NCBI GenBank assembly: GCA_004356455.1 | Contig: SMWZ01000147.1 | Coordinates: 128-64,127 of the forward strand | Direction of reading: 5' to 3' | DNA length: 64,000 bases | DNA from: Deltaproteobacteria bacterium | GTDB taxonomy: Bacteria; Myxococcota_A; UBA9160; SZUA-336 | Part shown: positions 36,359 to 48,944 of the stretch, one piece after another | How the letters are laid out: each line of letters opens with the position of its first letter | Position numbering within the stretch: position 1 is the first letter of the stretch | Made by a program: the position numbers and the translations under genes | Notes under the pieces: model-generated | What the model was told of the DNA's origin: nothing | Seen by the model: the letters and a program-made list of their open reading frames with translations, nothing else | Database searches by the model: none

Positions 36359-37526
36359 CACGTGCCTCCTCGAACAGGTGCGAGGCCATGCGCCGTAAAC
36401 CCTCGAGTGCATGCACGTCCTCCGAGAAGAGGGGGATCTTCCGCACGGCCTCCGGCGAGAGCCCGATCGCTTCTTCCAGGCGCGCGCCAACCTCCGCATC
36501 CCGCCGCGCCAGCAAGGCCTGCTGCGTCAGCGTGGCCACCAGCTCGCGTGCCGCCTGCTCAGGCTCGAAGCCTGGATCCCGTTTCGCCAGCTCTTTAGTC
36601 AGCTGCTCCGTTAGCTGCTTGGCCTCGGCCGTCCCGAGCTCGGGTGTCCGACCTCTTCCCGGCCAGGTCCGCACGCGGTTCATCACCAGCCCCAAGAGGT
36701 GAACTCTCTCCTGCTGCAGCCGCTTCCAGAAGTCCTCGGCTCGGCGCGCCTGCTCTGGATCGGGTCCCACCACGAGTACGAAACCGCAGATGGGATCTCG
36801 CAGCAACGCCTCGGTCGCGCGCGCGCGCTCGGTGAAGCCCTCCAGCATGCTCTCGAATGCCAGCAAGAAGTCGGAGATGGCCCTCAGGAACCCCAGTCCG
36901 GTCACCATCTCGAGTGCGCGCAGGACGGTCGCAGAGCCGAAGCGGAAGAGGCGAAAGCCGGTACGCCCGAGTGCGAGTGCGGGGCGGAATAAAAGCTTCA
37001 GTAGATCGCTCTGTAGGAAGCCTGTGAGTCGGCGTGGCGCGTCCAGAAACTCGAGCGCGTGGCTGCTGGGCGGCGTGTCGAGCACGATCAAATCATACTC
37101 GCCGGCGCTGTGAAGCTGGTGCAGGCTCTCCATCGCCGAGTACTCACGGCTCCCAGCCAGCGCATCGGTGAGATTCTGATAGATCGGGTTGGTGAGGATA
37201 CGCTCGAGCGCCTCCTCGTCTGGCGAGTAGCGGCGGACCAGATCGTCGAAGGTCTGCTTCGTGTCGAGCATCATGGCGACGAACTCGCCGCTGGCTTCGA
37301 TCCCGGCGGCTCGCAGCACAGCGCCCGGAATCGAGTGCGGCTCGTGTCCCAGCTCGATCCCGAGCGCGTCGCCCAGACGGCGCGCAGGATCGATCGTCAG
37401 TACCAGGACCCGCTTTCCACGGCGCGCGGCCTCGAGTCCCAGGGCGGCGCTGACGGTGGTCTTGCCCACGCCGCCGGTCCCCACGATCACCAGGATCTGG
37501 TGCTCGAGCCAGGGCGTCTCGCTCAC
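36351..37526 (-). CDS. ArsA/Get3-family P-loop ATPase (second of tandem pair)
   Basis: IVGTGGVGKTTVSAAL deviant Walker A and LTIDPARRL. GTG 37526 overlaps the upstream stop (GTGA). Confidence 0.85.
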   Translation of the reverse strand: MSETPWLEHQILVIVGTGGVGKTTVSAALGLEAARRGKRVLVLTIDPARRLGDALGIELGHEPHSIPGAVLRAAGIEASGEFVAMMLDTKQTFDDLVRRYSPDEEALERILTNPIYQNLTDALAGSREYSAMESLHQLHSAGEYDLIVLDTPPSSHALEFLDAPRRLTGFLQSDLLKLLFRPALALGRTGFRLFRFGSATVLRALEMVTGLGFLRAISDFLLAFESMLEGFTERARATEALLRDPICGFVLVVGPDPEQARRAEDFWKRLQQERVHLLGLVMNRVRTWPGRGRTPELGTAEAKQLTEQLTKELAKRDPGFEPEQAARELVATLTQQALLARRDAEVGARLEEAIGLSPEAVRKIPLFSEDVHALEGLRRMASHLFEEARDV

Positions 37527-38521
37527 GCCGGCATTTCCCAACCCGCGAGAGCACGCTTCAGGTGCTTGGCCAGGGGAGCCAGGCTTGCGGGGTTCTCGAT
37601 GGCGCGCACGAGGTAGGGCAGGGAGACGATAGAGCTGCCGCATCCGCGCTCGAGCTGCTTCAGGAAGCCGCGCTGCAGCGACGATCGGCGCACGCGGTAC
37701 TCGACACAGGTTCGCAAGAGCTCCGGATCCAGCAGAGGGGCGTCCCGGGCGGGCGGCGTAAGCCGCGCGAGCGTCGAGAGGACGGTCTCCAGCTGCGGCA
37801 GCTCGGGACCGGGCTCCACGGCGTTCGCGATCACGGGGCCGATGGTCATCCCCAGCCCTGCCATACGCGCACACAGCTCCAGCGTCTCACTTACGGGGAG
37901 CTCCTCCGCGAGCGTGACCGGCAAGACGAGCGTGCGCTGAGGGTCCTGAAGCAGGTCCTGCACCCAGTCGGTGTGTCTTCGCAGCGGTCCCAGCTGGACG
38001 CTGTCCAGCACCACCTTGGGCACGGAAAGGAAGGAGATACCGTGTCCCGTGGCTGGCCCATCCACGATCAGCAGGGGCCAGCGAGGTCGCTCACCCTGCA
38101 TCCTGGACTGGAGGTACCACAGCTTGCCGAGCGTGATCAGGGCGCGCCATCCCGGCGCGGCGTCCAGCATGCGCCGGAAGCCCTTGTTACGCACGACCGC
38201 ATTGACGATGCGGCGAACGCGCAGCTGGAGCTCGAGGTACTCGATCAGAGCCACTTCGGGAACGATGCGGAGCGTGAAGAGATGAGGCGCCAGCTGGATG
38301 GGATCCCGGCCACCGTCCGTCTGGAGCGTGGCCGGATCATCGCTCAGCAGCCGGGGCAGCAGTGGCGTTTCGCCCAGCTCGATGACGACCGTGTCGATAC
38401 CCTGGCGGGCGCTCAGCAGGCCGAGAGCCGCGGCGATGGTGGTCTTTCCTGTACCCCCTTTTCCGGTCACGATCAGCAAGCGCCGCTGGCTGAGCGCCGC
38501 GAGCCCCTCATTCACCCGCAT
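37523..38521 (-). CDS. ArsA/Get3-family P-loop ATPase (first of tandem pair)
   Basis: IVTGKGGTGKTTIAAAL deviant Walker A and VDGPATGHG. Confidence 0.85.
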   Translation of the reverse strand: MRVNEGLAALSQRRLLIVTGKGGTGKTTIAAALGLLSARQGIDTVVIELGETPLLPRLLSDDPATLQTDGGRDPIQLAPHLFTLRIVPEVALIEYLELQLRVRRIVNAVVRNKGFRRMLDAAPGWRALITLGKLWYLQSRMQGERPRWPLLIVDGPATGHGISFLSVPKVVLDSVQLGPLRRHTDWVQDLLQDPQRTLVLPVTLAEELPVSETLELCARMAGLGMTIGPVIANAVEPGPELPQLETVLSTLARLTPPARDAPLLDPELLRTCVEYRVRRSSLQRGFLKQLERGCGSSIVSLPYLVRAIENPASLAPLAKHLKRALAGWEMPA

Positions 38522-38599
38522 ACCTCAAGCGCACTCCGATCTTCGCCGACGCGCAGCGTGGGAACGTGCGTGTTCGCGCGCCAAGGGATCCGTGCAGCG

Positions 38600-39673
38600 A
38601 TGGTCGTTGTCTGCAAAAACTGTGAGACCCGCTTCAACCTGCCGGATGAAAAGATTCCGCCCGGGGGGGCCAAAGTGCGCTGCTCCCGCTGTGAGCACGC
38701 CTTTCACGTAGACCCCCCGGGGCCGCTCGAAGCTCGCCCCTCACCCGGCCGGCCCGAGGATACCGATACGGGCCGGCCCGAGGAACCGGCTCCCTTCCGG
38801 GAGGACTCAGATCTGGAGCATCCGGAGTTCCTCTTCGGGGTCGATGAGGCTGACGAGGCAGCCGGGAAGTCGGAGGAAGGGGTTCTGGGCGGCGCGGCCA
38901 GCGATGACTTCGATCTCGGCGAGATCGATGAGCCGCCGCCCGAGCTCGGCACCATCGATGCCGATCTGAGCCCGCCCGACGACGGCCTCCAGCTGGTCAG
39001 CGAGGTGGAGGCGCGAGAGCAGGAGTCGGAGGATAGCGAGCCCGGAGACTCCTGGGACCCCTTCGATGACGGCCTGGCCACCCCGCCCCCGCTGCGGGCC
39101 CGGGAGCCGATTCCCGTCCGCTCCGGCCAGGGCTTCGCCGAGCAGGAGTTCGAGCGGGCGGACGCCTCGGAGGGGGAGGAGAAAGCGGCTCCCGCCGCCC
39201 GGGCGAAGCGCAGGGGGCCTGGCCGGCTGGCGCCGTTGCTGGCTACGGTCGTGGGCGTGTTTCTGATCGTGGGTGGGCTGCGCGCGCTCAAGTTGTATGC
39301 GATCGACCATGAGCCGGGTCCGCCGAGCGTGCGGACGACTGGCTGGATCGCGACCGATATCCACGCCATGTACGTGCGCGACGCCAGTGGCCGCCGGGTC
39401 CTGGTCGTGCGCGGGAACCTTGCCTCGGATGGCTCCACACGCACCCCAAAGGTGTGGGCCACGCTGCTCGATGCGGACGGGGAGGCGCTGGGCTCCTCCG
39501 TCTCCGGGCTGATGACCCGGCTCGAGGTCGCGGAGTTGGGGCCCGGGGCTCTGAAGAGGCGCTTCGACTCGCCGGCCCGATCACGGATTATCGGCAGGAT
39601 CAAGGGCTTCACCGTGCTGATCCCCGACCCCTCCGAGGAGGCACGCCGCTACCGCGTCGAGCTCACGCTCTAG
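38600..39673 (+). CDS. MJ0042-type zinc-ribbon protein with acidic disordered linker, one TM and a DUF3426-like C-terminal domain
   Basis: MVVVCKNCETRFNLPDEKIPPGGAKVRCSRCEHAF zinc ribbon. True start is ATG 38600. The tracked ORF from 37562 is antisense to the ATPase gene. Confidence 0.75.
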   Translation: MVVVCKNCETRFNLPDEKIPPGGAKVRCSRCEHAFHVDPPGPLEARPSPGRPEDTDTGRPEEPAPFREDSDLEHPEFLFGVDEADEAAGKSEEGVLGGAASDDFDLGEIDEPPPELGTIDADLSPPDDGLQLVSEVEAREQESEDSEPGDSWDPFDDGLATPPPLRAREPIPVRSGQGFAEQEFERADASEGEEKAAPAARAKRRGPGRLAPLLATVVGVFLIVGGLRALKLYAIDHEPGPPSVRTTGWIATDIHAMYVRDASGRRVLVVRGNLASDGSTRTPKVWATLLDADGEALGSSVSGLMTRLEVAELGPGALKRRFDSPARSRIIGRIKGFTVLIPDPSEEARRYRVELTL

Positions 39674-39689
39674 GGGGCACTCCGCCCCG

Positions 39690-39893
39690 TCAGCGCTCCG
39701 ATTCGTCCTGCTTCTGCTCCGGATCCTTGTTGGGCGTGACGTCGATCTCGGGTGGCTCACGCAGGGCCGCGCGAAAGTTCTTGATCCCCTTCCCGAGGCC
39801 CTCACCGATCTGCGGCAGTCGGGTGGCGCCGAAAATCAGTACGATGATCACGAGGATCATCAGCAGCTCTGGGATTCCCAGCCCGAACATCAT
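39690..39893 (-). CDS. tatA: twin-arginine translocase subunit TatA/E
   Basis: [41 protein letters not shown]. Start at ATG 39893. Confidence 0.9.
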
Positions 39894-39953
39894 GGGCAGG
39901 GTGCTGCAGCCCCGGGTTGAAGTCAACGGAGCCAGACGGAACCTTCAGGACGC

Positions 39954-41306
39954 ATGAAGCCAGCGATTTTCAAGGCCTACGACATCCGCGGCATCTACCC
40001 CGACGAGCTGGACGCAGACGCGGCGCTCGCCATTGGAGGAGCGCTTGCAAGCTTCCTGGGTGGTGGTCCCATCGTGCTGGCCCGGGACATGCGTGTGAGT
40101 GGAGTGGCTCTGCGCGAGGCCCTCGTTTCGGGACTGCTGGCCGAGGGCGTGGAGGTGATCGACATCGGTCGGGTCGCCACCCCGATGGTCTACTTCGCGA
40201 CGACGAGGTTCGAGGCGGCCGGAGGCGTGATGATCACCGCGTCCCACAATCCCGGGGCGTACAATGGATTCAAGCTATGCGGTCCGTCGGCGGTGCCCAT
40301 CGGCATCGAGACGGGCATGAAGCAGATCCGCGCGCTGGCCGAAGATCGGTTCGGCCGAGCGGTCGGGCCCCCGCGTGCGCAGCTGCGCGAGCAGAGCATC
40401 GATGCGGAGTACTACACGAGTCTGCTCGAGATGTTCCCCGGCCGCCCCCGGCTGCGCGTAGCGATCGACGCCGGCAACGGCATTGCGGGCGCCGCGATCT
40501 CGGGTCTTCTGGAGCAGCTGCCTCTCGAGGTCACCCGGCTCTACTTCGAGCCCGACGGGTCATTTCCCAACCACGAGGCCGATCCGCTCAAGCTCGAGAA
40601 CCTAGAGGATCTTCGCCATGCGGTGAAGTCTGTGGGGGCGGACCTGGGGATCGCCTTCGATGGAGACGGGGACCGCGCGGTGTTCGTCGATGCGAGCGGA
40701 GATCCTATCCCGGCCGACCTGATGACGGGGTTGCTTGCCGGCGTCGTGCTCGAGCACCGCCTGCTCGGAGCGGGACCGGGTGCACACGTGATCTACGATC
40801 TGCGCTGCAGTCGCGTGGTTCCCGAGTGCATCCGGGAGGGGGGAGGGATCCCGGAGCGGAGCCGCGTTGGGCACGCGTTCATGAAGCAGCTGATGCGCGA
40901 AACGGATGCGTGCTTCGGGGGCGAGCTCTCGGGGCACTACTACTTCCGTTTTCCCAGCGGCTATGTCGCAGACGACGCGGCCGCCGCGATGCTGCTGCTG
41001 CTGCAGGCGCTCGAGCTCGGGGGTCGGCCGCTGGCGGAGCTCTCAGCTCCGCTACGACGCTACTTCCAGAGCGGCGAGGTCAATCGCAGCGTGCGGGACG
41101 TGTCCGCGACCCTGGAAAGAGTGGCCCGCGCCTTTCCAGACGGGAAGGCGGACGGGCTCGATGGGCTCACCATCTCCTTTCCCGACTGGTGGTTCAACCT
41201 GCGTCCATCGAACACCGAGCCGCTGCTGCGGCTCAATGTCGAAGCGTCGAGCGAGGAAGAGATGGTGGCGCGTCGCGACGCGGTCCTCGCCTTGATCGAC
41301 GCGTAG
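39954..41306 (+). CDS. phosphomannomutase/phosphoglucomutase
   Basis: FKAYDIRG, TASHNP (catalytic Ser loop), FDGDGDR and GELSGH motifs. Confidence 0.92.
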   Translation: MKPAIFKAYDIRGIYPDELDADAALAIGGALASFLGGGPIVLARDMRVSGVALREALVSGLLAEGVEVIDIGRVATPMVYFATTRFEAAGGVMITASHNPGAYNGFKLCGPSAVPIGIETGMKQIRALAEDRFGRAVGPPRAQLREQSIDAEYYTSLLEMFPGRPRLRVAIDAGNGIAGAAISGLLEQLPLEVTRLYFEPDGSFPNHEADPLKLENLEDLRHAVKSVGADLGIAFDGDGDRAVFVDASGDPIPADLMTGLLAGVVLEHRLLGAGPGAHVIYDLRCSRVVPECIREGGGIPERSRVGHAFMKQLMRETDACFGGELSGHYYFRFPSGYVADDAAAAMLLLLQALELGGRPLAELSAPLRRYFQSGEVNRSVRDVSATLERVARAFPDGKADGLDGLTISFPDWWFNLRPSNTEPLLRLNVEASSEEEMVARRDAVLALIDA

Positions 41307-41315
41307 GCTGCAACG

Positions 41316-42119
41316 GTGGCCGTGCGTCGCTCCGGTTTCTTTGCTGGCGCTGCCAGCCTGAGCACTGCCCTGCGCTTGCTTCGCTCGCACTCCGAGCTCT
41401 GGGTCTGGTGTGCGCTCCCGTTTCTGGTGAACCTCGCCGCCTTCGCGCTGGCCGTGTCCGTCTTTTGGACCTACTGGGAGCCGCTCAGCGAGAGCGCGGC
41501 GGCGCTTCTCCCCACGGCGGATCCAAAAGTCTGGTACGGCTGGCTCTGGGCGGGGCCCCTGCGCGTGCTGGCCTGGTTGCTGAAGTGGATTCTGATGGGG
41601 CTCTTCGGGGTTGTGCTCTATTTTTTGTTCACGCTGCTCGGGGGCGTGGCTGCCTCGCCCTTCCTCGACGTGCTCTCGCGACGGGTGGAGCGGCTGCGAA
41701 GTGGAGCCGTGCTGGAGGAGTCGCAGACGGGCCTGCGGGCTGCGCTCACGGGGTCGCTGCGGGTGGTGATCGAGGAAGGTCGGCGCACGCTCTTTTTGCT
41801 CGGCGGCTGGCTCGCCTTCTTCCTGCTCGGCTGGGTGCCGGGTCTGCAGCCGCTCGCCTTCCTGGGAGCGCTGCTCTTCGCCATGTTCTTTGCGCCCCTC
41901 GACTACACCGGCTACCTGCTGGACCGGCGCGGCATCCCCTTCCGTGAGCGCCGTCGCTGGCTCTGGCAGCACCGGCGCGCGATGCTTGGCTTCGGCGCGA
42001 CCGCACTCGGTACCTTTCTCGTTCCGGGGCTGAACTTCCTGTGTCTACCCTGGCTCGTGTGCGCGGGCACACTGCTCGCGCTCGACCTCGGCCCGCCTAC
42101 TCCGGCGGAGCCCTCCTGA
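41316..42119 (+). CDS. CysZ/EI24-family membrane protein
   Basis: ALPFLVNL, ASPFLDVLSRRVE, PLDYTGYLLDRRGIPFRERR and PGLNFLCLPWLVCAGT parallel E. coli CysZ blocks as I recall them. GTG start. Confidence 0.75.
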   Translation: MAVRRSGFFAGAASLSTALRLLRSHSELWVWCALPFLVNLAAFALAVSVFWTYWEPLSESAAALLPTADPKVWYGWLWAGPLRVLAWLLKWILMGLFGVVLYFLFTLLGGVAASPFLDVLSRRVERLRSGAVLEESQTGLRAALTGSLRVVIEEGRRTLFLLGGWLAFFLLGWVPGLQPLAFLGALLFAMFFAPLDYTGYLLDRRGIPFRERRRWLWQHRRAMLGFGATALGTFLVPGLNFLCLPWLVCAGTLLALDLGPPTPAEPS

Positions 42120-42120
42120 A

Positions 42121-42858
42121 TCAGGCGCTCAGGCGCAACGCCAGGTCGCGTACGCTTCGAGCCGTGCTCCCCTCCTCATCCACGTCGAGCACCGAGAGTC
42201 CGTGGAGCAGGGAACGGAAGATGGCCGGACCCCGGTGCAGCTCGCCCAGGTCTTCGAGCTCGAGCCCGAGCTGGCGCTGCGCCGCCCGTGCCAGTTTTCC
42301 GAGCGTGTCCTGGACCTCGGAGCTGCTGTTCGCGCCCACCCGCACCGCGCCCACCCGCAGCTCGGGCATGAGCGGGCCGAGCTGGCGCAACAGACCCAGC
42401 GCCTGCCCCGGTCCCAAAGGCGTGGCCTCGAGCGGCACCAGCACACCATCCACCGAGCCCGGTGCAAGCTGCTGGAGCAGGGTCCCGAGCGTGGCGGGAG
42501 GTAGCAGGACGAAGCTGCGCGTTCCGGGCGGCCGCTGCTGCAGGCTACGCTCCAGCCCTTCGGCACCTGCGTCTGCGAGGTCGATCTCCTGCCAGGAAAC
42601 CTCGGGTGCGCGAGGCAGCAGGCGATGGCGCGGAAACGGGGCCAGGATCTCGGCGCGCGCTCCGTCCCGGGCGGTCGCTACCGCCAGATCGATCGCGAGC
42701 GCGCAGCTCAGCAGTCGTTCAGCACTGGCCGGAAGACACCAGACTATGGCGGAGGTGGGAAGTTGCGCCCGCGTGGTCTGCACCTGCGCGCGCGCCTCGC
42801 ACTGCTCGTCTTCGGGGATGAAATAGTGAAGTACGTCACCCAGGCCCCTGCGCCGCAC
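42121..42858 (-). CDS. MinD/ParA-like protein lacking a P-loop (degenerate paralogue)
   Basis: The C-terminal half resembles ParA/MinD (VLLPPATLG.., VGANSSSEVQDTLGKL.., LGELHRGPAIFRSLLHGLSVLDVDEEGSTARSVRDLALRL). The KGGxGK[ST] position reads CLPASAER. Confidence 0.5.
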   Translation of the reverse strand: MRRRGLGDVLHYFIPEDEQCEARAQVQTTRAQLPTSAIVWCLPASAERLLSCALAIDLAVATARDGARAEILAPFPRHRLLPRAPEVSWQEIDLADAGAEGLERSLQQRPPGTRSFVLLPPATLGTLLQQLAPGSVDGVLVPLEATPLGPGQALGLLRQLGPLMPELRVGAVRVGANSSSEVQDTLGKLARAAQRQLGLELEDLGELHRGPAIFRSLLHGLSVLDVDEEGSTARSVRDLALRLSA

Positions 42859-42899
42859 GTCCCGACCTCCGGTAGACGCGGCGCGCCCCAGCGCCGCGC

Positions 42900-43979
42900 T
42901 CAGCTGATGATGATCACCGAGTTTATACCACCCGCCGGTCCCTCGACGGAGCGAGGGTTACTTGGATCGGGCATCCAATCCCCGTCGACCTTGTAGCGGT
43001 ACTGGTATACGCCGGGTCCGAGTCGGACGATCATCTCCCAGGTGCCGTTCGGCCCGCGGCGTGTCTCCACGTCCTTGTTTGCCACCCAGTCGTTGAAGTC
43101 CCCCGCGAGCTGTACCTCCCCTGCGCTGGTGCTCTTGTAGGTGAAGACGACGCCCTTGGCCCCCGCCGCCTTGGGCTGAGGCATCTCCTCCTCCTCTTCC
43201 GCGTGCTGGATGCGGTCGAAGAGCAGCTCCAACGCGAGTGACATGTAGTCGACGAAGCCGTAGCAGCGCCGGTCGAGCTTGCTGATCGGGAGCCCGCGCT
43301 GGGCCGCCTCGCGTAGCCGCACGTTCTGCCGAATCACGGTGTCGAAGACCAGGTCCTTATAGGTCTCCCGGATCTCGGCCAGGGCACGCTTGGCGAAGCG
43401 CGTGCGGCCATCGAAGAGCGTGGGCAGGATGCGGATGGAGAGCTGGTGACCGACCCGGTCCTCCAGCAGGCCGATCGTCTCGAGCAGCTTCCCGACTCCG
43501 TGCATGGCGTAGTAGCTGGTCTCGAGCGGAATGATGACCTCCTGGGCCGCCCGCAGGGCGTTGAAGGTGAGGATCCCCACGTTCGGGGGACAGTCGATCA
43601 GGACGAAGTCATAGGGTTTGGGGAGCAGCTCCAGGGCCTTGGCCAGACGCTCCGTACGTCCCTTGGCTCCCTCGGCGGCGAGCTTCTGCTCGAGGGCCGA
43701 GAGGATCACGCCCGAGGGCGCGACATCGAGGTTCTCGTCGGCGGGCACGGTCACCTCGTCCAGGCGGGCGCTGGGGGCGCCGTCCTCCGCCAGCACCTCG
43801 TACAGGTTCTCCTCAAGCTGCTCGGGGTCCAGGCCTAGCCCGAGCGTGGCGTGTGCCTGGGGGTCGATGTCGATCACGAGCACACGGTGTCCCTCGCTGG
43901 CGAGGCAGCCCGCAAGGTTGACGACCGTCGTGGTTTTGCCACACCCCCCCTTTTGGTTCATCACCGCTATGGTGCGCAT
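42900..43979 (-). CDS. ParA/Soj-type ATPase fused to a C-terminal CBM48/AMPK-beta-like carbohydrate-binding domain
   Basis: IAVMNQKGGCGKTTTVVNLA deviant Walker A. C-terminal VVFTYKSTSAGEVQLAGDFNDWVANKD..GTWEMIVRLGPGVYQYRYKVDGDWMPDPSNP matches the AMPK1_CBM pattern. ATG 43979 has a GGAGGAG RBS. Confidence 0.8.
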   Translation of the reverse strand: MRTIAVMNQKGGCGKTTTVVNLAGCLASEGHRVLVIDIDPQAHATLGLGLDPEQLEENLYEVLAEDGAPSARLDEVTVPADENLDVAPSGVILSALEQKLAAEGAKGRTERLAKALELLPKPYDFVLIDCPPNVGILTFNALRAAQEVIIPLETSYYAMHGVGKLLETIGLLEDRVGHQLSIRILPTLFDGRTRFAKRALAEIRETYKDLVFDTVIRQNVRLREAAQRGLPISKLDRRCYGFVDYMSLALELLFDRIQHAEEEEEMPQPKAAGAKGVVFTYKSTSAGEVQLAGDFNDWVANKDVETRRGPNGTWEMIVRLGPGVYQYRYKVDGDWMPDPSNPRSVEGPAGGINSVIIIS

Positions 43980-44262
43980 AATGTCTCTCCTCCGCGTCCG
44001 GCATGGTAGGGAGGAACGAGGCGTAGACCGCGCATGCAAGCGGGGCTGCCCCACGGGGTCGGCTGCGGATTTCTTGGCTTTTTAGGGTTAACTGAGCGCA
44101 GAGGAGGGGAAGCAGGGGGAGGCTGGCTGCGCGGAGGTGAGGCACGTGCCCGCCAGGATCGCGTCATCCCCGGCTGCACTGACGAAGCCCGAGCGCTACT
44201 GAAATAGAGCGCCTTCAATCCTCCCACCCCTACGTAACATTTAACAGTAGCCAAAATTCGAG

Positions 44263-45213
44263 ATGGTCAACAGCGCCACCCGCACCAGCGCCCCGGTCGC
44301 GGTGATCGATTTGGGGTCCAATACGGTCCTGCTGCTCGTAATCGAGCCTGGGGGGAAAGTGCTACGCGACGAGGCGCGAATTACACGCTTGGGCGAGGGT
44401 GTTTTCGCAACGGGGGTTTTAGACCCGGCAGCGGAGCTGCGCACGCGCAAGGTCGTGCGCGAGTTCGCCTCGCGCGCGCGTGCGCTTGGTGCGCAGCGGG
44501 TCGTGGGGGTCGGCACCGCGGCGCTGCGCCGCGCCCGTGACGGAGAGCGCGTGCTGCAAGAGCTGTGTGCCGAGGGAGCGCTCGATGCCGGCCACCTGCT
44601 GGATGGCCAGCAGGAGGCAGAGCTGTCGATCGCAGCCAGCCTCCGCGCCCGGGACCCGAGCCAGGGCCCTTTGCTGGTGATCGATGTGGGGGGAGGGAGC
44701 ACCGAGCTGGCCTGGACCAGGGGCCGGGACGAGGTACAGGGGGCGAGCCTGGCGCTGGGATCCGTGCGCCTGACCGAAGCTCACGTGAGCCGCCACCCGA
44801 TCCCGGCCGCGGAGCTGGCCGAGCTGCGGAACGCGGTGGAGCGCGGCAGCGCCGAGCTCGCGCACGCTCGCGGTCTGGACGGCAGCGGCGAGGTGGTGGC
44901 CGTGGCCGGTACCGCCACCACCCTGGCGGCGATGGAGCTACGCCTCTCTCGCTACGTCGCGGAGGCGGTCGAGGGTCTGGTGCTCGAGCGCCAGACGCTG
45001 TCGCGCTGGATCGCGGAGCTCTCACGGATGAGTGTAGGGGAGCGACGTCGCCTGCCGGGCTTGGAGCCCGGCCGGGCCGACGTGATTGTGGCCGGCCTCG
45101 TGATTCTGGAGGGGATGCTCGGAGCCATCGGCGCGGAACGCTTCCGCGTGAGCGGTCGTGGCCTGCGTTTCGGCGTCGCCTTCCGGCTTCTCGAAGGCCG
45201 CAACCTGGTTTGA
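44263..45213 (+). CDS. Ppx/GppA-family phosphatase (exopolyphosphatase-like)
   Basis: VAVIDLGSNTVLLLV, VIDVGGGSTEL and AVAGTATT motifs. Confidence 0.88.
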   Translation: MVNSATRTSAPVAVIDLGSNTVLLLVIEPGGKVLRDEARITRLGEGVFATGVLDPAAELRTRKVVREFASRARALGAQRVVGVGTAALRRARDGERVLQELCAEGALDAGHLLDGQQEAELSIAASLRARDPSQGPLLVIDVGGGSTELAWTRGRDEVQGASLALGSVRLTEAHVSRHPIPAAELAELRNAVERGSAELAHARGLDGSGEVVAVAGTATTLAAMELRLSRYVAEAVEGLVLERQTLSRWIAELSRMSVGERRRLPGLEPGRADVIVAGLVILEGMLGAIGAERFRVSGRGLRFGVAFRLLEGRNLV

Positions 45214-45228
45214 TAGGCTTGGAGTGTC

Positions 45229-46392
45229 GTGGCCAACTCAGCTCTCGTCGTCGTCGGGTCGGATGAACCGCGTCCGTTCATGCGGGGCATCCTGGTGCAG
45301 TCCCTCGTCTCGCGGGGTGTGCCGTTCGATGTGGCCCTCGAGACCGCGAACGAGATCCGTGGGCGCCTGGCGAACCAGGAGGAGGTCGCGCTCCACGATC
45401 TCTCCAAGCTCGTAGAGGAGCTGCTGGGGGATCGCTACGATCTCGAGGCGCTGCCCCTGCCGCCGGCGCAGGAGCCGCCGCAGGTGAGCGGTCCGCGCGG
45501 GACGTCCAGCCCCTTCTCGAAGGGCGTACTCGCGGTCTCACTTCAGGGCGCGGGTCTGGACCCGAATGACGCTTACGACGTGGCGCGCGAGCTCGAGGTT
45601 CGCCTGCTGCGCGAGGCGCGTCGCTCCATCGACCGCGTCGCGCTGCGCGACCTGGTGAGCGAGACCATCGAGCGCACGCACGGCTCCAAGGCTGCCGAGC
45701 GCTATCGCGTCTGGCGGCAGGCGCTCGAGGACGGTCGCCCGATCTTCTTGCTGCTGGGCGGTTCCACCGGCGTCGGCAAGACCTCGATCGCGGTCGAGGT
45801 CGCGCGCCGGCTGGAGATTTCGCGCGTGATTGGGACCGACTCCATCCGCCAGATCATGCGACTCATGTTCTCCGCTGACCTGATGCCCGAGATCCACTGC
45901 TCCACCTACGATGCCTACCGCGCGCTCCACCTGGAGTGGCCGGTCGAGGGGGGCGACGTCATCGTCGGCTTCCGAGAGCAGGCGCAGAAGATCGTGGTGG
46001 GGGTACACGCGCTTCTCGACCGGGCGGTCGAGGAGAATGTGAGCATGATGGTGGAGGGCGTGAACCTGCTGCCGGGCGTGCTACACCTCGACCGCTACCG
46101 CGAGAACGCGCACGTGATCTTCCTGGTCGTGGCCACGCTGGACAGCAAGGCGTACGCGGCCCGCTTCCAGTCGCGAGCAGCGACGGCGCGAGAGCGCGGG
46201 GCGGATCGCTACCTGAGATTCATGGACGAGATCCGCTCCATCCAGGATCATGTGCTGGCGGAAGCGGAGCAGCTTGGTCTGCCCATCATCGACAACGTGC
46301 GGCTCGATGACGCCGTGCTCTCGGTGACTCGCTCTGTCATCTCCACGCTCAAGAAGTCGATGTCGGACGCCGTCGATGAAGGTGCGTCCTAG
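45229..46392 (+). CDS. 2-phosphoglycerate kinase-like protein (ATP-cone-like N-terminal repeats plus P-loop kinase)
   Basis: FMRGILVQSL and FSKGVLAVSL repeats, then LLGGSTGVGKTSIAVEVA Walker A and GTDSIRQ. GTG start. Confidence 0.7.
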   Translation: MANSALVVVGSDEPRPFMRGILVQSLVSRGVPFDVALETANEIRGRLANQEEVALHDLSKLVEELLGDRYDLEALPLPPAQEPPQVSGPRGTSSPFSKGVLAVSLQGAGLDPNDAYDVARELEVRLLREARRSIDRVALRDLVSETIERTHGSKAAERYRVWRQALEDGRPIFLLLGGSTGVGKTSIAVEVARRLEISRVIGTDSIRQIMRLMFSADLMPEIHCSTYDAYRALHLEWPVEGGDVIVGFREQAQKIVVGVHALLDRAVEENVSMMVEGVNLLPGVLHLDRYRENAHVIFLVVATLDSKAYAARFQSRAATARERGADRYLRFMDEIRSIQDHVLAEAEQLGLPIIDNVRLDDAVLSVTRSVISTLKKSMSDAVDEGAS

Positions 46393-46430
46393 TGTCCTGT
46401 TCCGGGCGCTGCTAGAGGAAAATCAGCGAT

Positions 46431-47258
46431 ATGGAGAGATGGACCCGGCCTGCTCTCAGCTGCCTCGCGTTCTGCGCCGTGTTTGCGGCTTGCAGCACGC
46501 TCACGGTGCAGGAGGAGAAGAAACTCGGCTATCAGGTCCAGCGTCAGGTGCGGGAGGAGTACCAGTTCCTCCGTGAGCCGATCATCGTCAATTACGTGCG
46601 CAGTATCGGCCAGGAGCTGGTCCGGGCCGCGCCTCCCTCGCCCTTCGAGTTCCGCTTCTATGTCGTGGAAGATGAGCAGATCAACGCCTTCGCCATCCCC
46701 GGAGGTGCGGTTTACGTCCATACGGGGCTGATTACCACCGCCAAGAATGCCGGGGAGCTCGCAGGTGTCCTCGCCCACGAGATCGGACACGTAACGGCGC
46801 GCCACGTGGCCCAGATGTACCGCCGGCAGCGCAACACGGGCTTCGCCGCGAACATAGTGTCCATATTGCTTGCTATCCTGACCGGGAATAGCTACGTGGC
46901 GCAGGGGGGCCAGGCGGCGACGGGACTCGCGGCCCAGGCCTATATCAACACCTACACTCAGGACGCCGAGGAAGCGGCCGACGCCCAGGCGGTGAAGACG
47001 ATGGTGAAGGCGGGCTACGACCCGAACGCGCTGATCACGATGCTCCAGACCCTGCAGGCGGAGGCCGCGGGCGGCCTCCAGGTGCCGCAGTTTCTGCTCA
47101 GTCACCCGGCGACCTCCGAGCGCATCCAGGATGTCTCCTACCTGATCCGCCAGCAGGGTCCGCTCTCTGGACTCCGCACCAACGACCGCAAGTTCGAAAT
47201 CATCAAAGCTCGGATTCGACTGGTCGTAGGGACGGATGTGGATCCGGAGCCCGAGTAG
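46431..47258 (+). CDS. M48-family zinc metallopeptidase lipoprotein
   Basis: Lipobox FAAC, HEIGHVTARH (HExxH) and a downstream E. Confidence 0.88.
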   Translation: MERWTRPALSCLAFCAVFAACSTLTVQEEKKLGYQVQRQVREEYQFLREPIIVNYVRSIGQELVRAAPPSPFEFRFYVVEDEQINAFAIPGGAVYVHTGLITTAKNAGELAGVLAHEIGHVTARHVAQMYRRQRNTGFAANIVSILLAILTGNSYVAQGGQAATGLAAQAYINTYTQDAEEAADAQAVKTMVKAGYDPNALITMLQTLQAEAAGGLQVPQFLLSHPATSERIQDVSYLIRQQGPLSGLRTNDRKFEIIKARIRLVVGTDVDPEPE

Positions 47259-47276
47259 CCTGCTGCGAGAGAGCCC

Positions 47277-48944
47277 ATGATGAGCGTCCCCCCCCAGCTT
47301 CCGTCTCCCGGTGTCGTGTTGCGCCGCCTCTTGCAGAACCTCGGGGGGGGTCTGCGCGACCTGGTGTTGCTTCCGTTCCTGAGCCGGATCCCTCGCGAGT
47401 GGGTGGTGCTGCGCCTGGATCGAGGCCTGGCCGAAGCCAGCACCCCCTCGCCCTGGCTCGAGCAGCTGATGCAGCGGCCGCCGCTGCTCGCCAACGTGCT
47501 GGAAGTCATGCGTTACGCGCAGCGAGATGAGCAGGTACAGGGCGTGCTGCTCAAGCTCGGCCCCGGGTCGCTGGGCTGGGCCAAGGTGAGCGCGCTTGCT
47601 CGTGCCCTGGGCCGGCTGCGTGAAGCGGGCAAGCGCGTTGTGGCGTACGCCGAGAACACGGGCAACGCGGGCGCGTGGCTCGGTGCAATGGCCGATCATT
47701 TCTGGATGGCGCCCGAGGGACGGCTGGATCTGCTGGGCGTACGCATGGAAGTTCCGTTCCTGCGGCGCGCGTTGGAGAAGCTCCAGATCGAGCCGGACGT
47801 GATTTCCGCCGGCCGCTACAAGTCGGCGGCGGAGACGCTGGAACGCAGCTCGATGAGCCGCGCCGCGCGGGAGGCGCTGGAGGCCGTGGTCGAAAGACTC
47901 TACGAGGCACTCATCGATGGGCTGGCCAGCGGGAGCGCGGGCAGCGCTGAGCGGGCGCGTGAGTGGATCGACAACGGACCCTACCTGGCGGTGCAGGCGC
48001 ACGAGATCGGGCTGGTCGACGAGCTCGTCTACGCGGACGAGGTGCCGCAGCGTCTGGCGGCGCTGGCCCCCGGGAACGGGGAGCCCGAAGCAGGGCACGA
48101 GGCGCGGCTGGTGAGCGCGGCGAGCTACGCGCGCGTGGCGCGCCCACGCTTCCAGTGGCAGCCGGTCCTGGGCGAGGCCAACGAGCTTGCGGTCGTCGTG
48201 CTGCAGGGCCTGATTCTGCCGGGCGCGGGCTCCTCCCGCGGTATCGTGGGTCTGCTGGGTCGCCTGGCACAGAGCGATAACGTGCGCGCGGTCGTGCTGC
48301 GCATCGATAGCCCCGGCGGCGATCCGCTGGCGTCCGATCTCATCTGGCGTGCCGTGGGCAAGCTGGCGGAGAAGAAACCCGTGGTGGCCAGCCTGGGAGA
48401 CACGGGGGCTTCGGGCGGCTACTACGTCGCGATGGCGGCCAATGAGATCATCGCCGAGCCCACCACGCTCACCGGCTCGATTGGCGTGGTCATGGCCAGC
48501 CTCAAGTTCGACGCCTTCCTCGAGCAGCTGGGCGTGAGCTTCGATGCGGTCGAGCGGGGGCGCCACGCGGGCATCTACGATCCGGTACGGGCGCGCACCG
48601 AAGAGGAGCGCGCGCTGCTTCGTCGTCAGATCGAGCTCCTCTACACGGACTTCGTACGCAAGGCGGCGAAGGATCGCGGGCTTTCGGAGGAAGTGTTGGA
48701 CCGGGTCGCGCAGGGACGGGTCTGGACCGGGTCGCATGCCAAGGAGCATGCGCTCGTGGATCAGCTGGGCGGTCTCGACGTGGCACTGGCCCGGGTGCGC
48801 GAGCTCTCCGGACTCGAGCCCGAGGCGGGGCGCGTGGTGCAGTATGCGGTTTCGCCGGTTGCGGCGAGGTTTCTGCGGTCGAGTCCGCTCGAACGCGCTC
48901 GGGGGGCGCAGTTTCTATGCCCGGTTCAAGTGCGCCTGGACTGA
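47277..48944 (+). CDS. sppA: signal peptide peptidase SppA (S49 family, two-domain type)
   Basis: GDTGASGGYYVAMAANEIIAEPTTLTGSIGV catalytic Ser block and a duplicated ClpP-like fold. Confidence 0.88.
   Translation: MMSVPPQLPSPGVVLRRLLQNLGGGLRDLVLLPFLSRIPREWVVLRLDRGLAEASTPSPWLEQLMQRPPLLANVLEVMRYAQRDEQVQGVLLKLGPGSLGWAKVSALARALGRLREAGKRVVAYAENTGNAGAWLGAMADHFWMAPEGRLDLLGVRMEVPFLRRALEKLQIEPDVISAGRYKSAAETLERSSMSRAAREALEAVVERLYEALIDGLASGSAGSAERAREWIDNGPYLAVQAHEIGLVDELVYADEVPQRLAALAPGNGEPEAGHEARLVSAASYARVARPRFQWQPVLGEANELAVVVLQGLILPGAGSSRGIVGLLGRLAQSDNVRAVVLRIDSPGGDPLASDLIWRAVGKLAEKKPVVASLGDTGASGGYYVAMAANEIIAEPTTLTGSIGVVMASLKFDAFLEQLGVSFDAVERGRHAGIYDPVRARTEEERALLRRQIELLYTDFVRKAAKDRGLSEEVLDRVAQGRVWTGSHAKEHALVDQLGGLDVALARVRELSGLEPEAGRVVQYAVSPVAARFLRSSPLERARGAQFLCPVQVRLD

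Follow-up and report, generated by a model that had tools for sequence, protein, structure and literature searches.

A two-gene locus was analysed in a stretch of 64,000 nucleotides from contig SMWZ01000147.1 of a Deltaproteobacteria bacterium (assembly GCA_004356455.1; GTDB lineage Myxococcota_A, UBA9160, SZUA-336), hereafter called the window. The first gene, defined from the open reading frame (ORF) list, its translation and Pfam, occupies positions 42900-43979 on the minus strand and codes for 359 amino acids plus the stop codon. It runs from an ATG at 43979 to a stop codon at 42900-42902. Its product, hereafter called ParA-CBM, carries a ParA ATPase domain followed by a carbohydrate-binding module (CBM). 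The second gene (42121-42858, minus strand, 245 amino acids plus the stop codon) encodes a predicted pseudo-ATPase with an FlhG/MinD fold, hereafter called the partner. It begins with a GTG at 42858, 41 nt past the ParA-CBM stop codon, which is the spacing reported in an earlier note made from the sequence alone. Shine-Dalgarno sequences could be read on the minus strand ahead of both genes: GGAGGAGAG at 43985-43993 for ParA-CBM, and GGAGG at 42866-42870, within the 41-nt spacer, for the partner. The intergenic spacer has no terminator-like site on the minus strand. The genes flanking the pair on either side lie on the opposite strand, so ParA-CBM and the partner form a two-gene unit. A single fused ORF was also considered and was rejected, since the frames differ and the long open frames are an artefact of high GC content.

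Residues 1-255 of ParA-CBM (43215-43979, minus strand) were assigned as a Soj-type ParA ATPase domain from motifs and PDB sequence matches. The 359-residue product matched the Pfam families AAA_31 (3e-53) and CbiA (2.9e-22), and the closest PDB sequence matches of the ATPase domain were ParA 8ray (1.6e-48) and the Soj proteins of Thermus and Helicobacter (1wcv, 2bek and 6iub). The domain contains the deviant Walker A motif K10-GGCGK15-TT, motif 2 with D37 and D39, and the Walker B residue D129; none of K10, K15, D37, D39 and D129 varies among about 200 homologues. Judged by these motifs, the domain belongs to the deviant-Walker-A ATPases and the product of the first gene is a Soj-type ParA with intact catalytic motifs. 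The Soj-like DNA-binding segment NVRL(R/S)EA, which reads NVRLREA here, is conserved, with R221 being Arg or Lys in 201 of 204 sequences, and it is this single segment that argues for ATP-dependent dimerisation and non-specific DNA binding by ParA-CBM. Among the 120 best homologues, identity is 72-97% and the architecture is unchanged. An acidic, low-complexity linker (residues 256-275; 43155-43214, minus strand) separates the two domains and is recognizable by its poor conservation, with an identity of 0.29 among close relatives, falling to 0.08 across the class. Its length is variable and exceeds 100 amino acids in Planctomycetota.

The C-terminal region (residues 276-359; 42903-43154, minus strand) is an AMPK-beta/CBM48-type domain containing W298, R328, W335 and N353, as established from Pfam, PDB and a structural model. 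It scored 41.2 bits against AMPK1_CBM (PF16561; cut-off 26.8, residues 277-357) and 31.2 against CBM_48 (PF02922; cut-off 22.4), the cut-offs being the curated gathering thresholds. The C-terminal 99 amino acids matched the glycogen-binding domain of AMPK beta1 (1z0n) at 1.8e-8. An AlphaFold2 (AF2) model of the CBM alone folds as a beta-sandwich with a predicted local distance difference test score (pLDDT) of 91.5. Its top Foldseek matches were 1z0n and 6c9j, with TM-scores of 0.78-0.89, a root-mean-square deviation of 1.8 A and 34% identity; after the AMPK beta CBMs, the next PDB structural match was the starch phosphatase SEX4. W298, R328 and W335 align with W100, K126 and W133 of AMPK beta1, and mutating these AMPK residues reduces glycogen binding or eliminates it (PMC6274970). 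By score, fold and sugar-contact residues alike, the domain is a member of CBM48/AMPK1_CBM. The fusion of a ParA ATPase to such a domain, as proposed in the earlier note, is therefore borne out by Pfam scores, which exceed the threshold for both AMPK1_CBM and CBM_48, and by PDB and AF2 fold matches. The contact residues are retained across many phyla (W298 in 198/200 sequences, R/K328 in 194/200, W335 in 197/198 and N353 in 185/198). Identity to the ParA-CBM of the window is 0.75/0.45/0.39 for the CBM against 0.83/0.63/0.45 for the ParA domain. By this comparison the CBM is not fast-evolving and diverges no faster than expected. The likeness to the CBM48 modules of AMPK beta and SEX4/LSF thus extends to both fold and sugar-contact residues; the difference is that here it is a ParA ATPase that bears the module, and that the host bacterium lacks detectable alpha-glucan metabolism. 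AMPK1_CBM-like tandem repeats unrelated to ParA are also found in large proteins of other Myxococcota (for example G086:C36:293-1792), with up to five copies within one 689-amino-acid frame.

The partner gave no Pfam or NCBIfam match. A profile built from 21 homologues matched FlhG (4rz3, 2.4e-9), FleN (5j1j, 2.5e-8) and MinD (1hyq, 0.036) through the C-terminal half of the protein. The AF2 model of the partner (pLDDT 85.8) was matched by Foldseek to FlhG, FleN, MinD, NifH and Soj over about 249 columns (E 3.7e-11, TM 0.66-0.69). Secondary structure, Foldseek and the FlhG alignment (residues 137-248) delimit a degenerate SIMIBI (FlhG/MinD-like) domain at residues 36-245 (42124-42753, minus strand). 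Strand 1 (38-43) and helix 1 (49-64) are connected by a loop with the sequence ASAER, which lacks G-K-S/T, and motif 2 (DxD) and the Walker B Asp are missing along with Walker A. Because these nucleotide-binding motifs are lost while the SIMIBI fold is retained, the partner is, as read from its sequence, a pseudo-ATPase. The earlier note had called it a MinD/ParA-like paralogue and a likely non-catalytic partner. The loss of catalytic motifs and the ParA-type fold both held up, the latter through the FlhG profile match. A recent duplication is not supported: when the profiles of the partner and ParA-CBM families were compared directly by hhalign, the probability was 0.5%, which is not significant, so the partner is better described as FlhG/MinD-like than as a recent copy of the adjacent ParA. 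FlhG, FleN and MinD are its best matches by both profile and fold, but it differs from them in its missing nucleotide-binding motifs. Unlike MinD and FlhG, it also has no C-terminal amphipathic membrane helix, ending right after the last core helix, and the window holds no flagellar or Min gene context at the locus. The partner gene lies directly downstream of ParA-CBM in relatives from the class and in other phyla. One homologue (L031:1123-2085) keeps a GKST Walker-A-like loop (GGDRTPGKST), so the loss of nucleotide binding is not universal across the partner family.

The most conserved part of this fast-evolving protein, distant members of which are 31-45% identical, is its N-terminus (consensus RRRGLGDVLHYFIPEEEQ). 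Based on conservation and spacing, residues 1-16 (VRRRGLGDVLHYFIPE; 42811-42858, minus strand) are proposed as a putative ParB-like ParA-binding motif. D8, L10, H11, F13 and I14 of this peptide are invariant, and L6, G7, V9 and E16 are nearly so; residues 1-12 were predicted to be disordered (AF2 pLDDT <50). L6, L10, F13 and I14 are placed with the i, i+4, i+7, i+8 spacing of L11, L15, L18 and I19 in Myxococcus xanthus ParB, but the central residue is D8 and not Arg or Lys, the basic residues lying upstream at R2-R4. The peptide resembles the N-termini of ParB proteins of the same class, which start RRSALGRGLGALLPE. These ParB sequences were taken from relatives. The genome containing the window is a metagenome-assembled genome (MAG) of 90% completeness, and a regular-expression search of it found no ParB because the contig bearing its canonical Soj-type ParA gene (KGGVGKTT; C26:6351-7127, outside the window and downstream of yidC-jag-rsmG) ends about 380 bases past that gene. 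In an earlier study, stimulation of the ATPase was reported to require R13 of ParB (Schnabel et al. 2025, PMC12462528). A structural model from the same study places R13 near Y81, E82, D110 and E117 of ParA, and the ParB-ParA contacts used here for comparison are both experimental and modelled (PMC12462528). The equivalents of the ParA pocket in ParA-CBM (V134, I136, F139, L171 and V176) stay hydrophobic. The equivalent of ParA E117 is K99, and the equivalent of ParB R13 in the partner is D8.

This exchange of charges can be followed through the family. Residue 99 is Lys or Arg in all class members listed, and their partners, where readable, have an acidic core. Across phyla the partner N-terminus reads KKLGRGLEDFSHLFLS, PKLGRGLSDVSRFFLS or KRLGKSLDDISHFFLS. 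In the four lineages where the peptide has an LGRGL core, position 99 is not basic, and three of them (L029, L034 and L040) also have D90. The peptide is carried by the pseudo-ParA, by a restriction endonuclease (REase)-like protein directly (L029 and L034) or by a long fused protein (L057, Planctomycetota), and on this pattern it appears to behave as a portable module. In the second arrangement (L029:5088-5789 and L034:5052-5711, from Rokubacteria and Gemmatimonadales), LGRGLE(D/E)VSHLFLS is fused to the REase-like domain and no pseudo-ParA gene is present. The peptide also persists in Nitrospirota (L066), where the ParA has no CBM. Its target would therefore be the ATPase domain, and a role as ligand of the CBM was rejected on the same observation. 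The D8/K99 charge swap looks like a means by which the pair would be insulated from the housekeeping ParA-ParB, as far as may be inferred from the alignments. Compared with chromosomal ParABS (M. xanthus ParA 8ray; PMC12462528), the locus has an ATPase that shares the catalytic motifs and includes a Soj-like DNA-binding segment, and a partner peptide with the hydrophobic spacing of ParB, with the LGRGL core in other phyla. It differs in several respects. The partner is not a ParB: no ParB/Srx CTPase or parS-binding helix-turn-helix (HTH) domain was found in it with Pfam or NCBIfam, and its fold is SIMIBI. The central Arg of ParB is Asp in the partner, and ParA E117 is Lys in ParA-CBM. Finally, the ATPase itself bears a ligand-binding domain, and a separate canonical ParA is encoded elsewhere in the genome.

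The distribution of the fusion was surveyed next to that of its neighbours. A continuous junction between the ParA C-terminus and the CBM was found in 51/58 sampled genomes of the same class, an uncultured lineage with records titled as Myxococcota or Deltaproteobacteria MAGs. ParA-CBM is single-copy in this class. The junction was absent from all 243 genomes from the rest of the phylum, in which only the CBM part matched other proteins. In three other families of the class (f5, f6 and f9), five genomes share the gene order Zn-ribbon protein, TatA, PGM/PMM, EI24-like protein, partner, ParA-CBM, 2-phosphoglycerate-kinase-like protein, M48 protease and SppA. In these genomes ParA-CBM is 51-59% identical to that of the window, a value at or above that of most housekeeping neighbours apart from a short TatA match in some, and the adjacent partner is 25-27% identical. 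Among species representatives, full-length fusions were found in Planctomycetota, Omnitrophota, Gemmatimonadota, Rokubacteria, Acidobacteriota, Thermodesulfobacteriota, Margulisbacteria, Krumholzibacteriota and Gammaproteobacteria, with versions lacking the CBM in Nitrospirota. About 45 of 61 genomes of Phycisphaerae have a strong orthologue, in an open frame of 400-530 amino acids. ParA-CBM is thus core to at least two distant classes and not merely sporadic, and the pair is a chromosomal, vertically inherited module. The possibilities of a misassembly or a one-off fusion, which the earlier note had left to such a survey, were rejected given hundreds of full-length homologues and the conserved synteny.

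The near-universal, single-copy and syntenic distribution points to a physiological role in organising the cell or in sensing, and away from a mobile defence island. The reading preferred here is that the pair is a physiological, lineage-core ATP switch resembling ParABS, whose CBM binds a carbohydrate-type ligand other than glycogen made by the cell itself. A probability of roughly 0.45 is given to it.

The only literature found on a ParA associated with glycogen or CBM48 takes a different view. Li, Burroughs and Aravind (bioRxiv 10.64898/2026.10.19.760177, October 2026) described a "ParA-CBM system" (clade ConB5) in which ParA is fused to a C-terminal AMPK1_CBM, with a second variant that adds a fast-evolving, catalytically inactive ParA and an inactive REase. 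The role predicted there, by computation and not as a result, is that of an immune sensor. The composition has accordingly been described already, in computational form, and the statement of the earlier note that no such system was known no longer stands. The locus in the window matches the second variant in its ParA-AMPK1_CBM fusion and in the adjacent inactive, fast-evolving protein of ParA fold, but not in the inactive REase, a gene for which fuller relatives do have. Clustering of neighbours among 85 loci gave the recurrent order of a MerR-like HTH protein, ParA(-CBM), partner and a protein of about 200 amino acids with weak similarity to NucS (REase fold, E 0.018), in which the catalytic D...ExK signature is degenerate. 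The window contains only two of these genes. The REase-like gene is present in L007, L008, L010 and other phyla, but it is absent from the window and no homologue was detected in the genome. For the module-type MerR gene, only a weak generic MerR match with unrelated neighbours was found in the genome (on C136). The family to which the window belongs has lost the MerR-like and REase-like genes and retains a reduced, two-gene form. The preprint further describes a sporadic distribution and a fast-evolving CBM, whereas the fusion is class-core and syntenic here with a well-conserved CBM, and it does not mention the ParB-like peptide.

As an anti-phage or anti-plasmid conflict system, the module would sense an infection-linked carbohydrate through its CBM, upon which ParA would multimerise on DNA and block the invader. 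Additional sensing would fall to the inactive ParA and, at other loci, to the inactive REase. The phylogeny and context analysis of the preprint speak for this, as do the patchy distribution across phyla, the fast evolution of the partner, and the inactive REase-like and MerR-like genes of the fuller module. It is harder to reconcile with a gene that is near-universal and single-copy in fixed housekeeping synteny in one class and common across Phycisphaerae, or with a CBM whose contact residues are almost invariant. In addition, PADLOC matches were obtained at the level of the P-loop only, and no defence genes were seen beside the pair in the window. An immune function is on balance considered rather unlikely for this lineage.

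A second alternative, the one favoured by the earlier note, is that the CBM holds on to glycogen particles made by the cell, and that ParA, cycling on the nucleoid, spaces these particles or shares them out. In its favour, the CBM is a genuine AMPK-beta-type module whose W298, R328 and W335 match glycogen-binding residues, and the absence of a signal peptide-like leader from ParA-CBM indicates that it is cytoplasmic. The genome, at 90% completeness, has no GlgA above cut-off and no GlgB, GH13, GH57 or glycogen phosphorylase. The near-complete carriers G002 (97%, 3 contigs), G016 and G030 (2 contigs) lack these families as well, with weak partial GlgA matches below the curated cut-off in G016 and G030, and no GlgA, GlgB or phosphorylase was found in G149, which is a single contig. 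In the sample of the class, GlgA above cut-off was detected in 14/61 genomes and GlgB in 22/61. GlgB was present in 11 of the 36 fusion carriers included in both samples, which accords with the proposal, but was missing from the other 25/36, and two genomes of the class without the fusion (f2) have it. Four carriers outside the sampled class (MAGs of Phycisphaeraceae, Sedimentisphaerales and Acidobacteriota, and one further Myxococcota MAG) likewise lack the GH13-type (TIGR01515-type) GlgB. Since the glycogen genes are absent from most carriers in the class, self-made glycogen cannot be the conserved ligand of the CBM, the sugar-contact residues of which are, by their conservation, under selection regardless of these genes. 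Tethering to glycogen-like granules is accordingly judged improbable. In one genome from the same family (G319:C2:2036165-2037513), the GlgB match is broken into pieces, two of which overlap and contain an in-frame TGA, suggesting ongoing decay of glycogen genes in part of the lineage.

It is similarly improbable that the CBM-like domain is a regulatory or protein-protein module rather than a lectin, docking for instance on the ATPase or on some other protein, with the ParA switch having a non-carbohydrate output: the absent glycogen genes, the CBM-less versions in Nitrospirota and the precedent of AMPK, whose CBM is also in functional contact with the lobe of the kinase, would fit this, but the near-invariant residues are exactly the surface aromatic and basic residues that contact sugar, and the partner peptide is independent of the CBM.

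The preferred reading, that of a physiological switch with a carbohydrate-type ligand, would operate as follows. ATP-bound ParA-CBM would form a sandwich dimer on nucleoid DNA, as Soj does. The N-terminal peptide of the partner would fold into a short amphipathic helix through L6, L10, F13 and I14 and engage the ParA dimer, thereby setting the lifetime of the dimer or its ATPase rate, and the charge swap (ParB R13 to D8, and ParA E117 to K99) may keep the pair apart from the housekeeping ParA-ParB. The two CBMs of each dimer could bind a cytoplasmic carbohydrate-type ligand or cargo bivalently, the ligand in this lineage probably being something other than self-made glycogen. A bolder form of this proposal, which is regarded as doubtful, is that the locus encodes a second, insulated ParABS-like machine that forms part of the core of entire bacterial classes, in which a charge-swapped, portable peptide mimicking ParB drives a nucleoid-bound ParA while the CBM holds a non-glycogen glycan or glycoconjugate of the cytoplasm.

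Several points weigh against the preferred reading. The ParA-CBM family is known from computation alone, and the sole published view of it (bioRxiv 10.64898/2026.10.19.760177) favours immunity. The CBM keeps the exact alpha-glucan-binding residues of AMPK, which is awkward where alpha-glucan synthesis is missing. The partner evolves fast, with 25-45% identity where ParA-CBM has 51-80%. Docking of the peptide on ParA is proposed by analogy only, and the covariation of the charge swap comes from two or three independent lineages. The modules of other families include MerR-like and inactive REase-like genes, so the two-gene form may work differently. Lastly, the genome is only 90% complete, yet relatives at 95-97% show the same absences of glycogen genes.

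Insofar as the bolder form of the proposal is correct, these bacteria would contain an unrecognised carbohydrate-bearing structure or signal within the cell. ParA/MinD ATPases normally recognise their cargo via a separate adaptor, and in the adaptor-based positioning systems McdAB (for carboxysomes), PomXYZ, ParC/ParP and PpfA/TlpT the cargo-binding element is on the partner. The locus resembles these systems in combining an orphan ParA with a partner of its own, whose N-terminal peptide presumably regulates the ATPase, but here the putative cargo-binding element belongs to the same polypeptide as the ATPase, and it is a dead ATPase that carries the activator-like peptide. This large family occurs in many phyla and is a core component of two classes or more; the in-silico interpretations offered for it so far are glycogen positioning and immunity. 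For carriers without glycogen metabolism, glycogen positioning is removed as an explanation and the question sharpens to the ligand of the CBM. The pairing of peptide and pocket, with its possible charge swap, defines concrete residues for point mutants.

The genes around the pair in the window (37523-48944) are, in order, those for an ArsA-like protein, a Zn-ribbon protein, TatA, PGM/PMM, an EI24-like protein, the module itself, Ppx/GppA, a 2-phosphoglycerate-kinase-like protein, an M48 protease and SppA. This block is largely syntenic with the five genomes from the three other families, in whose loci the Ppx/GppA and ArsA-like genes had no match. Within the class, the fuller module is followed by a gene for an extracytoplasmic function (ECF) sigma factor, often with an alpha/beta-hydrolase gene after it (L007:5806-6486, L008:9081-9752, L009:8530-9132 and L010:7955-8653); no ECF sigma-factor gene is found at the equivalent position in the window. 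The REase-like third gene product has a conserved C-terminal motif, FR(T/S)GL(S/T)xxDLxLxxxExxxF (L008:8400-9041, L010:7250-7945, L018, L020-L022 and L026), which may be a second docking peptide. In one locus from Margulisbacteria (L046:5076-6002), the ParA-CBM gene is followed by an AAA_22 ATPase gene instead of a pseudo-ParA gene.

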